A DNA stretch of 64,000 nucleotides, taken from the NCBI GenBank assembly GCA_964516875.1, contig CAZFAO010000006.1, positions 17,049 to 81,048 on the forward strand, written 5' to 3'. The position numbers are program-made. This document shows positions 52,401 through 64,000 of the stretch, in pieces (the first letter of the stretch is position 1; each line of letters begins with the position of its first letter). The stretch is from an uncultured Burkholderiales bacterium. GTDB taxonomy: Bacteria > Actinomycetota > Acidimicrobiia > IMCC26256 > JAGPDB01.

Positions 52401-55400
52401 GACGTCGTAGTGGTCGCTCAAGGCCATATCGAGGCCATCGGTGCCATTATCGGCCACAGAAACGGCAAATCCCTCGCTTCTGAGGCGCACGGAGAGTGCG
52501 TTTGCGATATCGTCTTCATCCTCGACGATCAGGATCTGCTTCTTCACCCCACCAGTCTACGTTTGTCCAGGTCGCGACCACCTGGTCGAAATGTGGAGGT
52601 TTTGTGCAGAATGGGCAGGAATAGGCTGACGCTATGCTTCGTTGTATTCGTAACATTCCCCTAATTAGGCATTAACGAGAGGCTATTTAACGACGAATAA
52701 GTCCTTAGTACACAATATAAATAAGGATACCTATGGCCTGGAGTGACTCTTCGAGAGACTCATCAGATTCAGCGCACTCATTGAGTAGTGGCGTCTTCAG
52801 TGCTGCCGGTGTACAGGTCAAAGCCATGGCCGGTTCTTCTTTTACCACCGATGTCATCCGTGTTGAACGTTTGGGTGTGGAGAGTGCTGTAAAAATTCTG
52901 ACTCCGAACGCAACAAAAGATCCCGATCTTGTTTCACGTTTTCTAAAAAATGCTCGCTACAACCAAAGTCTTAATGAATTTACCGGGATGAGAATTACTG
53001 AGATTGTCGAAACGGGTCCGCGTCCATACTACGTGATGGAAAAAGTTGCCGAATCATCGTTGTTGGAAATAATTCGACAGCATGCTCCTCTTGATCCTCG
53101 ATGGTTAGCAACATTGCTGTTGCCCATTGCGCGCATGCTCGACACGATTCATCAACGAAGTGTGTTGCACGCAAATATTAAGCCGAGCAATCTTTTGGTG
53201 GTTGTGGAAAATAACCAAGAAAAATTTCTTCTTGTTGATTACATGGAACCGACTCTCGCTGCAACATCTGCAACATTGACGGGCGCTGGAGTGTACGCTG
53301 CGCCCGAATTTCGTGCAGGTACGCCCGTGTCGAATCGATCCGACATTTACTCGTTATCCGCTGTGATGTACGAGGCGTTGAGTGGAATCGTGCCGGGCAG
53401 TTCTTATCGCGGGGCCGATGGGGTTTTCCATGTTTGGCGTGCTGGTGACAGGCCACGCGAGTTATGCCAAGTGAACCCAGAAATCAATCGCACAGTATCG
53501 GAAATGATTATGCATGGGGTTTCGCCCGATGCAATTTCGCGTCCAGCGAGTGCAACGGCTTTGGTGGAAGAGACTTTGCGCACGTTAGAAGTTCCACGCA
53601 CGCGCGTGGAAGTGAAAAAGGAAGTCGAGCCCGATCATCAACCTGTACCCATGTTGCTTATTGCAGCAGGTGTATTTTTGACCATCCTTCTTTTGTTCGG
53701 AGGATACAAACTGTTAACCGGCGCAGTTGGCGGATCAGATACTCCGCAGGCAACGTCGACGAGTGCTCAAACAACAACGACAGAGAACACAGCGGTGACA
53801 AACTTGACGGCAAACGAACAAAAAATTATTGCGTTGCTGCCATCGGTTGATGGAAATCAAACATGTCCACCAAGTGCTTCGACGAGAAATAATCCACAGT
53901 GGGCATTGAGTATTGCAGAGTTGGAATGTACGTCTGATGGCGTGACAGATTTGCGATACGGTCTGTTTTCTAATTCAACAGATCAAAAAGCAAACTACCA
54001 AGGCCAAGCGTTAACAATGAGCGATGAAGTTCAAGCTGCTGGCGGGAAGATCGTTGGCAATACGGGAGGAAAGATTCCTTGCTCGACGAATCAAAATGAA
54101 AGTGGTGGCTGGGGAGACAACGAACAGACCGGAAAAATCGGCGGTCAATACACCTGTGTATCACTTCCACACCCACGAATTGTTTGGACCGACACAAGGT
54201 CGGGGCTGATTGGCGATGCTGAACTTCGCAACGGGAATATTGCTGACCTCATTCAATGGTGGTCATCAAAGGGAGGGCCGATCGGCTAATGGAACTTACA
54301 CTTACTGTCCAGCCACCTGCAGCGCCCGCCGTTGATGTTGATATGACTGTCGATGCGTCGCGACCTATGCGCGATGTTGTCGATGCACTCGTTCGTGCAA
54401 CAGGTGTACCTCCCACGTTGAGTAGCGATATGAGTTTGTATGTTCCGCTTCGCGATGCTTGGTTGAATAATGAGATGACTGTTTCTCAAGCGCGATTGCG
54501 TATGGGAGAAGTTGTTGTTCTCGGTCGAAACATGAACACGTCGTCTGTGATTATTGGTGACGTAGTTGAAAAGACGCGCACCTCCAAGAACAAAAAATCA
54601 ACGAGTCCAGCCTCTGCGTATGAGCTGTGTGTCGTGTCGGGTCCAGAGAATGGAACACGAATTTCGCTCACGCCGAAAAGTTTGGTCATTGTTGATCGAC
54701 GTGGCAGTGTCCGCGTGAGTGACGCAAAATCAATGTATAAACGACGTCCAGCTGAACCTGAAGAAATGACGACAAATGAAAGTAACCATCATTTTAAATT
54801 TGAGGGTATCACCGAGCTCGACGCAGCAGCATGTCTTCTTGAAGTCGATCGAACAATATTTTTCTCACCTATCACAGGCGAAGTGAGCGTAGAAGTTCGT
54901 CGAGCAAAAGAACGAACGGAACTCGATGAGCACGCAATGATTTCGTGTGGGGGAGTGTTCCTCTTTATTCGACGAAAAGTTGTCGACGAGCCTCTGTCGG
55001 TTTCTGAACGTGGGATCGTTGCGATCAACCGACCACCTCGCAACATGCAACCACCGATGGAACGAATCATTGGTATCGAAGCGCCTCCGCGTGATGCGCA
55101 AAAGTCTCGTATTTCACCTGTCATGATTGCAGTGCCAGCAATATTTGGTTGTGTGATGGCAATCGCGATGAGCAATGTGATGTTCCTTGGTTTTGCTTTT
55201 ATGTCGCCCGTGATGATGCTGGGTCAAGCGTGGGATTCTCGACGCACGGGAAAGAAAGATTTCAGGTCGGGCAAAGCAAAATACGTTGCCGATATCGATG
55301 CAGCAGTTGCACAACTTCGCATTGGTCGTCGTGAAGAATTAGCAATTCGACGAATTGTATTTCCCGACGCAACTGATTGCATGTCACGTGTGCTCGATGG

Positions 55401-61400: not shown

Positions 61401-64000
61401 TCGCGCTCTCTGAGAATGGTGTCTAATTGTGCCGAGAGGTCACCAGACATGGTTGCTCCTTAACATGAAGGTTAGTAATGATAAAAGAGTTCTCGTCACA
61501 CAAAATGTGTGACGAGAGTGACTTAGCTAAAGGAATTAGCGCCGTGATTGTCAGCTTTTTGGAATGAATCCATCCCGATGCCAACGTTGCCGACAAGTCG
61601 TGTAAGAACACCGTCGAGTTCAACAAGGATTGGCTCAAAGTGGCTCTTAAGCTTATTGATCGCAGCTTCGCGTTGCTTACCGACAAGTTCATCACTTACT
61701 CGGTCACTGATAATTTTTCGAATGATTTGATCATTCACCGCACGAACTTCTAGTTGGTGGGTTCGTAATGCTTCTGCATCTGTGTATGAAAGTGTAATCA
61801 TGATAACTCCTTAAAAATATTGAATTCTTAGACGATGGTTTCTTCGTCAATGATGTCGAGATACTTGGCAAATTCTTTTTCGCCGTGCGCAAATTCTTTA
61901 AGCTTTTGTGTGAGCTTGAGAGAAACAGCGTCATACTCATTGTTTGCTTGAACAGTTTTGTTCACGAAAAGACCTTTTGAACGAGAGTTGAAATCACTCA
62001 CGAATTCAGTCATTTTTGCTTTGATAGTTACAATTTGATCGGACCCATCTACGGCCTTGTTCGCATTGCTGGTCTGTACACCACTGTCGTGGCGAAGATT
62101 TGGAGTTGTCATTGCACATCCTTTGCTTGTTGTACCCCTCAGGGTTATAAAAAGTACTATAAGGTGCAAAAGGGAAAAATGCAATGAGAAATGACAATTT
62201 GGAAGCCAAAATTGCGAATTTTTTTTCGTTGGGTGCGCGGAACTCCGGTTTTATGCGGAAAATGCGTTTGGTGCGAGAATCATTTTTGTACCTAATACCG
62301 CACGGCCGCAACGGCTAATTCGTCTACAAAATCGTTCATTTCGTGTCCTGAATGACCTTTGACCCACGTGAAGGAAACATTACCGTGATCCATCACTTTT
62401 TTAATAAAAGGCTCCCACAAATCTTTGTTGGCTACAGGTTTGCCAGCGGAGTTTTTCCAATTTCTTTTCATCCAGCCAACATGCCATTGATCGTTGAAAC
62501 ATTTGACGACGTATTGGGAATCGGAGACTATTTCTATGTGTACGTATTGATCGGCGAAGTGCGCAACGGCCATAAATGCAGCATTGACTTCCATGCGTTG
62601 GTTCGTCGATGGGTTTTCGCTTCCCGAATCAAATTCTTCGCGCGACACTGCCCATGCCCACCCGCCGGGACCAGGGTTTCCACTACACGCGCCATCGGTA
62701 TATACAACAATTGATTCAGTCATTCCCAACAGGTTAGTGGCATATAACGCGATACGAGAACCGAAAATCCGTGAGTAGAATGAACAGATGTCCAAGGTGC
62801 GTTTCTTTCACTCCATAGTGCTATCTATCGCGATTGTGACTCTGTCTAGCGCCTGTTCTTCCAGCGATTCGTCATCGGACAGGAGAAGTCGACGATCTCT
62901 ATCGCGCGAATCAACGACGACAACGAAATCGAAAACAACTTCAACAACTGCTCCGACGCAAAATACGACACCCATTGTTGAAGTTCCTTTTTTGAGTCCT
63001 GCCCAAATTCCACAAACGTGGACGCAAGCAAATCTGTGCAGTCTTATTTCTGTCGCGGACGCTCAATCTATTTTGAACATGACGACTGCTCCCACGTCAA
63101 CATATTCTCATTCGGACACCACGGGCGCACGATGCACTTTTTCAACTGGGTCGGGCGACGAAATATTTATTGAACTATCGAGCGTATCGTTTGCCGATGC
63201 CCGTGCAGTCGACACAGCACTCAACGCTACAACCACACCCATTGTTGTTGACGGGGTTGGTGGCGTATCGAAAACCAACAAAGCAACAGGGGTTACGTAT
63301 ATGTTAAACGTGTCGGGGGCAGCATCGAATCAATGGGTAGTCAACGCGCCCACAGATTCTCAAACAAATGATGCAGCGAAATTGCTAATCACCTCGCTCA
63401 AATAAGCCACTTTTGCCTAGGATGAACTTTTATGAATGAACTTGTTGTTATCGGTGGGTCTGCTCAGGGCCTTTCAACGGCTGTTGCTGCTCGAAAAGCT
63501 GGGGCGGCGTCTGTTCGTGTAATCGAAACGAAAAACAGTGTTGCCTATCCAGAAATGGTGGGGAATGAACGACTCGATGTTAGCTACGGAGAAAAAATTC
63601 TTGCGATTACTGAAACGGATAATGGTTTACTGATCAAAACCGATACGCGTGAATATCCAACGCAGGCGTGTGTTATCGCGCTGAATTCTGAACATGCCGT
63701 TGTTGATCTGCCGTCAGGGATTTCCACCTCTTCGCATGTCCATGCTGGGCCAGAATCTTTAACGCACAGCATTGCTGGAAAAGATATCCTCGTCGTGGGA
63801 GATAACGACCGCGCCGTGGTTCTTGCAGCTCGGTATGTCCACGAGGGCGCGCGAAGTGTTGTGCTCGCGGCGCGAGGGATGAATCCCGACTTGTTGTCCG
63901 ATGCTTCGCACGATGTTATTGCGCAGTTGGAAAAAGATCGACAGCTAACGGTTCTATATCGGGCAACACCACACACCATCGATGAACTCGATGACGGTGA

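Follow-up and report, generated by a model that had tools for sequence, protein, structure and literature searches.

The stretch of DNA analysed here (hereafter the window; 64,000 nucleotides, contig CAZFAO010000006.1 of assembly GCA_964516875.1, positions 17,049 to 81,048) carries at 52733-62184 a compact gene cluster which, with an estimated probability of about 65%, encodes a type VII-type export system of an uncultured Acidimicrobiia lineage, reduced from a kinase-linked ancestor similar to T7SSd, a variant type VII secretion system (T7SS). The cluster consists of a conserved, translationally coupled two-gene core, pseudokinase plus ATPase, located beside a variable island that is bounded by rnhA, and is best read as a phospho-independent, reduced derivative of a T7SSd-like system. 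In the map of open reading frames (ORFs), the plus-strand pair coding for the 518-aa pseudokinase and the 1530-aa ATPase converges with five minus-strand genes, and the G+C content stays at 46-49% across the whole window, with no break in composition. The map and the sequence confirm the gene layout, the strands and the one-base TAA/ATG overlap given in a preliminary description of this DNA: base 54289 closes the TAA of the kinase gene and opens the ATG of the ATPase gene (GGCTAATGG), with AGGGAGG located upstream. The core and its predicted parts are as follows.

52733-54289, plus strand: pseudokinase, 518 aa (Pkinase, 68 bits)
54289-58881, plus strand: predicted EccC/EssC-family ATPase, 1530 aa
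54289-54528, plus strand: ubiquitin-like (YukD-like) beta-grasp, ATPase residues 1-80 (AlphaFold2 pLDDT >90)
54610-54984, plus strand: FHA-like beta-sandwich, ATPase residues ~108-232 (alignment with FHA-positive relatives; all-beta AlphaFold2 model)
55105-55218, plus strand: hydrophobic hairpin of two transmembrane helices, residues 273-310, 38 residues (Kyte-Doolittle scan)
56413-56436, plus strand: Walker A of domain 1, GTTGSGKS (residue 709); Walker B LMIVIDEF with catalytic DE
57472-57495, plus strand: Walker A of domain 2, GTSSSGKT (residue 1062)
58345-58368, plus strand: Walker A of domain 3, GGRGTGKS (residue 1353)

An EccC/EssC-type motor

Judged by profile scores and sequence matches, the 1530-aa protein is an EccC/EssC-family motor and not FtsK or TraB. 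Pfam recognised three FtsK_SpoIIIE stretches in it, while the NCBIfam scores were 578 bits for TIGR03928 EssC (below the cutoff of 778), 368 bits for EccCa (below the cutoff of 509) and 363.7 bits for EccCb (above the cutoff of 346.55), with only 78 bits for FtsK and 33 bits for TraB. Thermomonospora EccC (1e-73), B. subtilis YukB and EccC5 were the top matches in a PDB sequence search, in which the transmembrane (TM) and DUF region of EccC3 also aligned with residues 279-495. From the N- to the C-terminus, the protein is laid out as a ubiquitin-like (Ubl) domain, an FHA-like domain, the TM hairpin, the DUF and three P-loop domains. Pfam, NCBIfam, the Walker motifs and hydrophobicity agree on the EccC/EssC-type ATPase with three P-loops and two TM helices that had been recognised in the preliminary description, and the profile scores and PDB matches support its view of a T7SS-type locus around such a motor. 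As to the grouping with TraB/FtsK translocases that it had raised as a counter-indication, the scores came out the opposite way.

Ubiquitin-like and FHA-like domains at the ATPase N-terminus

The AlphaFold2 (AF2) model of ATPase residues 1-270 (pLDDT 83.6) contains a beta-grasp at residues 1-80 followed by an all-beta domain at ~110-230. Foldseek matched residues 1-80 with ubiquitin, SUMO and NEDD8 (TM-score 0.7-0.77, root mean square deviation 2.3-3 Å). The best Pfam family for residues 1-87 was YukD (E 0.011, 16.9 bits, below cutoff), and a hidden Markov model (HMM) built from relatives found the Ubl domain at E 3e-14. The all-beta domain can be aligned with the regions that Pfam recognises as FHA in the closest ATPase relatives; matches of FHA HMMs to it are weak and split, and OdhI, the FHA protein retrieved by Foldseek, appears only at rank 48. 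This FHA-like domain carries an insertion of ~27 aa, and the phosphothreonine-binding GR, SxxH and NG are replaced in every one of the 12 clade sequences aligned. The two domains, absent from the preliminary description, are the key to the mechanism proposed below.

The partner protein is a predicted membrane pseudokinase

By alignment and model, the 518-aa partner is a single-pass membrane Hanks-type pseudokinase. It is composed of a Hanks-type kinase-like domain (aa ~25-290), a TM helix (aa 307-330) and a Cys-containing alpha/beta ectodomain (aa ~357-518), and in the AF2 model (pLDDT 79.9) a kinase fold and a single TM helix are accompanied by a confidently modelled alpha/beta ectodomain with four invariant Cys. 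Its neighbours in sequence and in fold (Foldseek) are the actinobacterial Hanks kinases PknB, PknA and PknI, together with StkP, while its ectodomain has no match in Pfam or, by profile search, in the PDB. Catalytic motifs were read from an alignment of 16 orthologues (44-100% identity), four kinases located beside related ATPases and a PASTA-domain Ser/Thr kinase of the PknB type from the window itself (19567-21525), which has intact catalytic motifs and serves as an internal control for the pseudokinase call. In all 16 orthologues the Gly loop reads GSSFxxD, the alphaC Glu is replaced by Asn, HRD by H(A/G)N and DFG by D(F/Y) followed by a 6-aa deletion, whereas the comparison kinases retain all these catalytic motifs. 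Of the kinase motifs, the VAIK Lys, KPxN, APE and the Arg of subdomain XI are all that the pseudokinase retains. The membrane pseudokinase of the preliminary description is thus upheld by catalytic motifs altered in every orthologue aligned. Its further proposal, that this protein fills the EssB role, holds for topology and likely role but not for homology: Pfam gave no match to the YukC/EssB family, and the closest proteins are PknI and PknB. We consider the resemblance to EssB, and with it the EssB/EssC parallel, to be convergent because the pseudokinase descends from a Hanks kinase of the kind that remains active next to sister ATPases.

Conservation and selection of the core

Full-length kinase orthologues form 23 clusters, all of them from metagenome-assembled genomes (MAGs), and both clusters with a source name are labelled Acidimicrobiia; a metagenome scan added one further close relative, and searching an assembly index for the exact kinase sequence of the window gave no match. 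Every clade locus fetched with both flanks shows the order ribB-histidine kinase-response regulator / kinase-ATPase / island / rnhA. Two of the MAGs (loci L009 and L010) bear the title 'uncultured Burkholderiales bacterium' and show the complete gene order of the Acidimicrobiia type; either the label or the binning is likely to be wrong. In clade loci fetched with the upstream flank the kinase lies beside the ATPase, two lineages having an insert between them, and the one-base overlap of kinase stop and ATPase start was found in four loci. The insert, present in the L006/L010 and L107 lineages, is a gene for a TM segment plus a paralogue of the ectodomain, in which all four Cys are kept (coordinates are those of the respective locus).

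L006, 11527-12192: extra TM and ectodomain gene
L107, 9408-10001: extra TM and ectodomain gene

For the pair L004/L009 (dS 0.3-0.5), the kinase has a dN/dS of 0.10 and the ATPase one of 0.04; the values of the housekeeping neighbours are 0.03 (rnhA) and 0.04-0.06 (histidine kinase and response regulator). The kinase-ATPase core is therefore functional and not decaying. Full-length ORFs and Walker motifs remain intact across lineages down to 44% kinase identity.

Accessory genes in the window and in related loci

Searches of Pfam and NCBIfam found no EccB, EccD, EccE or MycP among the ~50 ORFs of the 64-kb window, nor was EssA, EssB, EsaA or a free EsaB/YukD found within it; ~40 further window ORFs gave housekeeping Pfam families or no match. 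TsdI and TsdH were not found in the window either, the sole other ORF >1000 aa encoding a GGDEF-EAL protein and the operon holding no extra gene. Precomputed Pfam annotation of the +/-10 kb flanks of eight clade loci likewise contained no T7SS accessory family. The lack of ESX and T7SSb accessory genes that the preliminary description had noted thus applies to the locus and to the remaining 64-kb window, and the Pfam/NCBIfam searches for T7SS families that it had proposed returned EccCb over cutoff for the ATPase and no accessory family.

A variable island with candidate cargo

Between the ATPase gene and rnhA, the following genes were mapped.

58882-59667, minus strand: 261-aa soluble protein, family unassigned
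59714-61150, minus strand: 478-aa candidate secreted effector
61160-61450, minus strand: 96-aa small protein
61523-61801, minus strand: 92-aa small protein
61828-62112, minus strand: 94-aa small protein
62292-62723, minus strand: rnhA, RNase HI (Pfam RNase_H, 127.6 bits), conserved right border of the variable island

The source NCBI record contains products of exactly 94, 92, 96 and 261 aa, and good Shine-Dalgarno sites precede all three small-protein genes (AAGGAG in the case of the 96-aa gene). The gene content of the island is lineage-specific, the L001-L003 lineage having none at all, and the island genes evolve faster (dN/dS 0.28-0.39 for L004/L009). The 92-aa family (A2) is present in seven cassette variants, always beside a 94-aa-type partner or a second partner family, and the 94-aa family (A3) is always accompanied by A2. 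The preliminary description regarded the module as unlike EsxAB pairs, a view we do not share, since the 94/92-aa pair behaves as a conserved Esx-type pair.

The evidence on the identity of the small proteins is weak, yet all of it points toward T7SS substrate families. Pfam and NCBIfam gave neither WXG100 nor any other match for the three proteins of the window. In profile searches of the PDB, A3 retrieved S. aureus EsxA first (E 0.018, a weak match) and then other WXG100 structures, and A2 retrieved the LXG-domain protein 8gmh_B first (E 0.024, also weak). When compared with hhalign, A3 gave no signal against a WXG100 profile, and A2 aligned weakly with the actinobacterial WXG100 profile over 85 columns (probability 39%, E 3e-4), which equals the level of a Pfam-recognised T7SS_signal protein taken as yardstick. 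A third small family, found in sister loci and not in the window, scored 27.2 bits against the WXG100 cutoff of 27.3, with an hhalign probability of 83%. An iterated WXG100 HMM built from the loci of relatives found no small protein of the clade or the window. The 96-aa protein, for which the searches found no homologue, is possibly a partner of the 478-aa protein.

The 478-aa protein, our candidate secreted effector, is composed of a ~310-aa N-terminal domain, a hydrophobic Gly-rich segment (aa 315-344), a Gly/Ala/Thr tract and a helix-like C-terminal tail. An exhaustive search of 1.84 billion cluster representatives retrieved four relatives, in each of which an N-terminal domain of ~300 aa precedes a hydrophobic tract rich in Gly, Ala and Thr; a word-indexed search with the N-terminus retrieved none. 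Neither the protein nor its family profile has a match in Pfam or the PDB, and BLASTP and hhalign revealed no significant similarity to the 492-, 499- and 457-aa island proteins. Regarding the LXG-type effector module suggested in the preliminary description, the gene order is indeed alike but LXG or T7SS_signal homology was undetected, and Pfam showed no LXG, DUF3130 or DUF3958 at the locus. The 261-aa protein has no TM segment and no match in Pfam, NCBIfam or PADLOC. To call it an ORFan was too strong, as homologues occur in two sister lineages: in L004 and L009 they lie 3' of the 492/519-aa genes (E 1e-30), just as the 261-aa gene lies 3' of the 478-aa gene. This protein is a candidate immunity protein or chaperone.

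Island proteins of other lineages carry Gly-rich membrane segments or Ca-binding repeats. The 499-aa island protein of L107 (18871-20370) has repeated DADGDGIPDSIDRTP motifs and a faint thrombospondin type 3 match; the motifs suggest a secreted Ca-binding cargo. Separately, a 97-aa WXG100-like gene encodes identical proteins in L004 (16637-16930) and L009 (15565-15858), with dS of 0.03 as compared with 0.17-0.62 for its neighbours, which hints at recent exchange within the island.

Flanking genes and regulatory signals

Flanking and regulatory features of the locus are listed below.

50644-51822, minus strand: sensor histidine kinase, HAMP-HisKA-HATPase_c (Pfam; same place in all clade loci)
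51822-52547, minus strand: OmpR-family response regulator, divergent from the kinase-ATPase operon (Pfam Response_reg and Trans_reg_C; synteny)
52548-52732: shared intergenic region, 185 bp, between the response regulator and pseudokinase genes
59674-59702, minus strand: promoter-like TTGACA-17-TATTGT preceding the 261-aa gene (consensus match only)
61491-61517, minus strand: terminator-like hairpin, 12-bp stem and T-run, 3' of the 94/92-aa pair
62156-62184, minus strand: promoter-like TTGCAT-17-TATAGT, 5' of the small-protein genes (consensus-like match only)

Pfam confirms the flanks as first described, namely a divergent two-component system separated by 185 bp on one side and rnhA on the other. 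Alignment of the response regulator/kinase intergenic region revealed a block at 52556-52611 that is conserved in all eight clade loci, including a lineage at 45% kinase identity. It holds a direct repeat, TGTGGAG (52592-98) and TGTGCAG (52603-09), with an 11-bp period. Operators of OmpR-type regulators contain direct repeats with such a period, and the block may well serve as an operator. An inverted repeat, TATTCGT...ACGAATA (52645-52699), located 5' of the kinase gene, is kept in five clade loci, and L004 and L009 share a ~170-bp insertion in this region. The TTGCAT-17-TATAGT site reported earlier is present at 62184-62156 on the minus strand as the single exact match in the window (0 expected); it did not pass a stricter consensus scan. 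At the other end of the island, the ATPase gene and the convergent 261-aa gene meet stop to stop: the TAG of the former is followed directly by CTA, the latter's stop as read on the plus strand, and the two triplets make up the palindrome TAGCTA (58879-58884). A search of the window against Rfam found no RNA family. Elsewhere in the window, three GGDEF-EAL proteins with CHASE or PAS sensors (251-2635, 7381-10482 and 34478-37273) amount to a high density of cyclic di-GMP genes in 64 kb.

Proposed mechanism

We propose that the ATPase would oligomerise in the membrane and that its fused Ubl and FHA-like domains would dock on the cytoplasmic domain of the pseudokinase without phosphorylation. By analogy, such docking would reproduce the YukD-YukB(FHA)-YukC assembly at the heart of T7SSb, the three cytoplasmic modules of which are contained here in two polypeptides. 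The channel would be formed by the TM hairpins and the pseudokinase TM helix, and the 94/92-aa pair may be an Esx-type heterodimer engaging the ATPase. The 478-aa protein would be exported, possibly with its 96-aa partner, and might insert into a membrane via its Gly-rich hydrophobic segment, while the 261-aa protein would act as its cytosolic partner (immunity protein or chaperone). Expression is probably controlled by the divergent two-component system. How export would proceed, what the channel would be made of and what the 478-, 261- and 96-aa proteins would do are all inferred.

Several observations weigh against a reduced, T7SSd-derived exporter. Export is here a prediction from genes, the organism being uncultured, and further membrane components may be encoded outside the 64-kb window. 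The ATPase scores under the curated cutoffs for EssC and EccCa. No small protein of the window reaches the WXG100 threshold, the best E being ~0.02 (PDB); the 94-aa family has no hhalign signal, the 96-aa protein no relatives and the 478-aa protein no detectable LXG or T7SS_signal homology. Finally, the L001-L003 lineage has the core but no island, meaning that its substrates are encoded elsewhere or that the core has another role.

Alternative explanations

The locus might only look minimal, belonging to an ordinary T7SS whose other membrane parts (EccB/D/E/MycP-, EssA/EsaA- or TsdH/TsdI-like) lie elsewhere in the genome, of which no more than 64 kb is visible. The TM and ectodomain gene inserted between kinase and ATPase in L006 and L107 shows that the core is able to accept further membrane partners. 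Core genes are clustered in known T7SS, however, and no such family occurs among the ~50 window ORFs or in the +/-10 kb flanks of the eight clade loci; nor do EccB/D/E/MycP recur near the Ubl-FHA-ATPases of 10 cultured Actinomycetota, judged from crude ORF calls and the best 25 of 57 families. We consequently regard this explanation as unlikely, while still giving it real weight. A related question is whether island proteins of the 478-aa type are structural, envelope-spanning parts of the machine (EsaA/TsdI-like) rather than effectors, as their membrane-like segment, their long N-terminal domains and the occurrence of like layouts in four of the eight island variants might indicate. This is improbable: the 478-aa type is absent from L001-L003, L090 and L106, the proteins cannot be aligned between variants, their dN/dS is raised and some variants have other C-termini (the Ca-binding repeats of L107). 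Such a pattern of presence and divergence is typical of polymorphic cargo.

Loss of the catalytic and phosphothreonine-binding residues, together with the empty island of one lineage, could also be taken to mean that the kinase and FHA motifs were lost through disuse in a decaying remnant. We find this very hard to reconcile with the strong purifying selection, which resembles that on the housekeeping neighbours, with the intact ORFs, Walker motifs and one-base overlap that persist across lineages down to 44% kinase identity, and with the conservation of the replacing residues themselves (HAN, NARYNQ), as in true pseudokinases. Scarcely any weight is due, either, to a DNA translocase or conjugation protein of the FtsK/TraB type, or an anti-phage system, with the kinase as regulator. 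The generic FtsK_SpoIIIE domains and the domain-level PADLOC matches to mad8, SspH and PD-T4-6 are in keeping with it, but the latter span generic domains only, and FtsK (78 bits) and TraB (33 bits) score far below EssC (578), EccCa (368) and EccCb (364). The layout of three tandem P-loops, TM hairpin and DUF is specific to EccC/EssC, and no DNA-binding gamma or winged-helix domain was seen. Moreover, the chromosomal position is fixed, the fetched clade loci contain no relaxase, integrase or other mobile-element genes, and no co-transfer with a mobile element was observed. Cumulatively, we favour a type VII-type exporter derived by reduction from a T7SSd-like system.

Possible implications

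The locus bears on what constitutes a minimal translocon and on why kinases, FHA domains and ubiquitin-like proteins recur with the T7SS ATPase. Here two genes encode the three modules that make up the core unit in T7SSb, while the nearest actinobacterial relatives of the locus keep an active kinase and a phosphothreonine-competent FHA domain. The dead-kinase locus and its active-kinase relatives thus offer a natural before-and-after pair for comparing phosphorylation control with constitutive scaffolding. Tentatively, we go one step further and suggest that the phospho-dead pseudokinase and the Ubl-FHA-EccC fusion might be the entire membrane core of a working T7SS in Acidimicrobiia, in which the Firmicute EssB/EssC step, from active kinase and FHA to scaffold, would have been re-run independently. 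If true, the Ubl-FHA-ATPases of many Actinomycetota without ESX partners would represent an unrecognised major T7SS lineage, and the fused Ubl might account for the ubiquitin-like component reported missing from T7SSd. The two-gene core would also be a compact candidate for reconstitution of a T7SS channel, and T7SS-type export with a fast-evolving cargo island would be placed in uncultured Acidimicrobiia. A full-text search of one literature collection found no paper with both type VII secretion and Acidimicrobiia.

Comparison with known type VII systems

Kinase-linked T7SS variants have been described as T7SSc-j (Garrett, Higginson & Palmer 2024, PMC11217815). T7SSd, from Actinomycetota, comprises TsdA (WXG100), TsdC (an FHA-ATPase with a conserved phosphothreonine site), TsdD (a membrane Ser/Thr kinase with a conserved active site), TsdH (a small TM protein) and TsdI (a ~1650-aa Ig-like protein), and a ubiquitin-like protein is 'surprisingly' absent (PMC11217815). 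The window locus resembles T7SSd in its phylum, an ATPase with an N-terminal FHA region, a single-pass membrane Hanks-fold partner and the absence of EccB/D/E/MycP; in a rough neighbour-joining tree its ATPase falls into the same FHA-ATPase super-clade as that of Pseudoscardovia, apart from T7SSa EccC. It differs in that neither the active site of the kinase nor the phosphothreonine site of the FHA domain is left, both being reported as conserved in T7SSd, and in its Cys-containing alpha/beta ectodomain, that of T7SSd being helical. Further differences are the Ubl fused to the ATPase, where T7SSd is reported to have none, the lack of TsdI and TsdH in the window and a WXG100 protein that Pfam does not recognise.

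Beyond the clade, the nearest ATPases (30-36% identity, ~1450 aa) carry FHA, and the few that are named are called only 'FtsK/SpoIIIE'; named EccC proteins, 25-28% identical to the window ATPase, form the outgroup of the rough tree. In that tree the sister group of the Acidimicrobiia clade consists of metagenomic, kinase-linked loci, among them L088 (the locus of P0104), whose ATPase is 36% identical. L088 encodes a free FHA protein, an active kinase, a 329-aa protein and the ATPase; its convergent module comprises two proteins of the WXG100 type, of which one scores 67 bits, along with a ~457-aa T7SS_signal protein and a ~209-aa protein. It shares with the window the Ubl-FHA-ATPase layout, the upstream kinase and the convergent module of two small, one ~457-aa and one ~209-aa protein. 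In contrast to the window, it keeps all kinase and FHA motifs, has the additional free FHA and 329-aa genes and possesses clear WXG100 members (67 bits) and a T7SS_signal domain. More widely, Ubl and/or FHA profiles match the ATPases of most fetched loci, including those of Streptomyces, Cellulomonas, Agromyces, Nocardiopsis and Actinomyces, and WXG100 proteins are encoded by 66-71 of the fetched loci, clade loci excluded. In cultured Actinomycetota (L012-L087, including Promicromonospora), Ubl-FHA-EccC-like ATPases with WXG100 genes are widespread, without recurrent EccB/D/E/MycP in the neighbourhoods of the ten compared. The locus L059 of Pseudoscardovia radai is T7SSd-like, with an ATPase (9356-13852), a kinase and a 1615-aa ORF upstream of the ATPase. 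To the eye, the first ~80 residues of this ATPase resemble a Ubl, but hhalign support is weak (Ubl probability 28%, FHA probability 13%), so that a fused Ubl hidden in T7SSd is only a lead.

In T7SSb, YukD and the pseudokinase YukC join with YukB's FHA region to form the core unit, in which the YukB:YukC:YukD ratio is 1:2:1 (Oka et al. 2025, PMC12637312). As in the YukB-YukC-YukD complex of B. subtilis (PDB 9QKS), the window locus combines a Ubl, an FHA region that has no phosphothreonine-binding residues and a pseudokinase that is anchored in the membrane and has a domain outside the cell. The genes for pseudokinase and ATPase are neighbours in both, and the order of small proteins, large protein and partner is that of T7SSb effector modules. 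Whereas T7SSb has a free Ubl and two FHA domains, the window ATPase carries the Ubl as a fused part and has a single FHA-like domain; the pseudokinase is nearest to PknI/PknB with no YukC match, and EssA, EsaA and an LXG domain are missing. What the locus shares with T7SSa/ESX is the EccC type of motor, in which a TM hairpin and a DUF are combined with three ATPase domains and which passes the EccCb profile; in ESX a ubiquitin-like domain is present as well, fused to EccD. The window ATPase, however, has the Ubl and FHA domains that EccC lacks, and EccB/D/E/MycP do not occur in the window. On defined features, the locus belongs to neither T7SSa, T7SSb nor T7SSd. Of the atypical or hybrid T7SS put forward in the preliminary description, the atypical T7SS-type character stands but an unprecedented hybrid does not: because kinase-linked variants, T7SSd being the nearest, have already been described, the locus is a derived variant of these.

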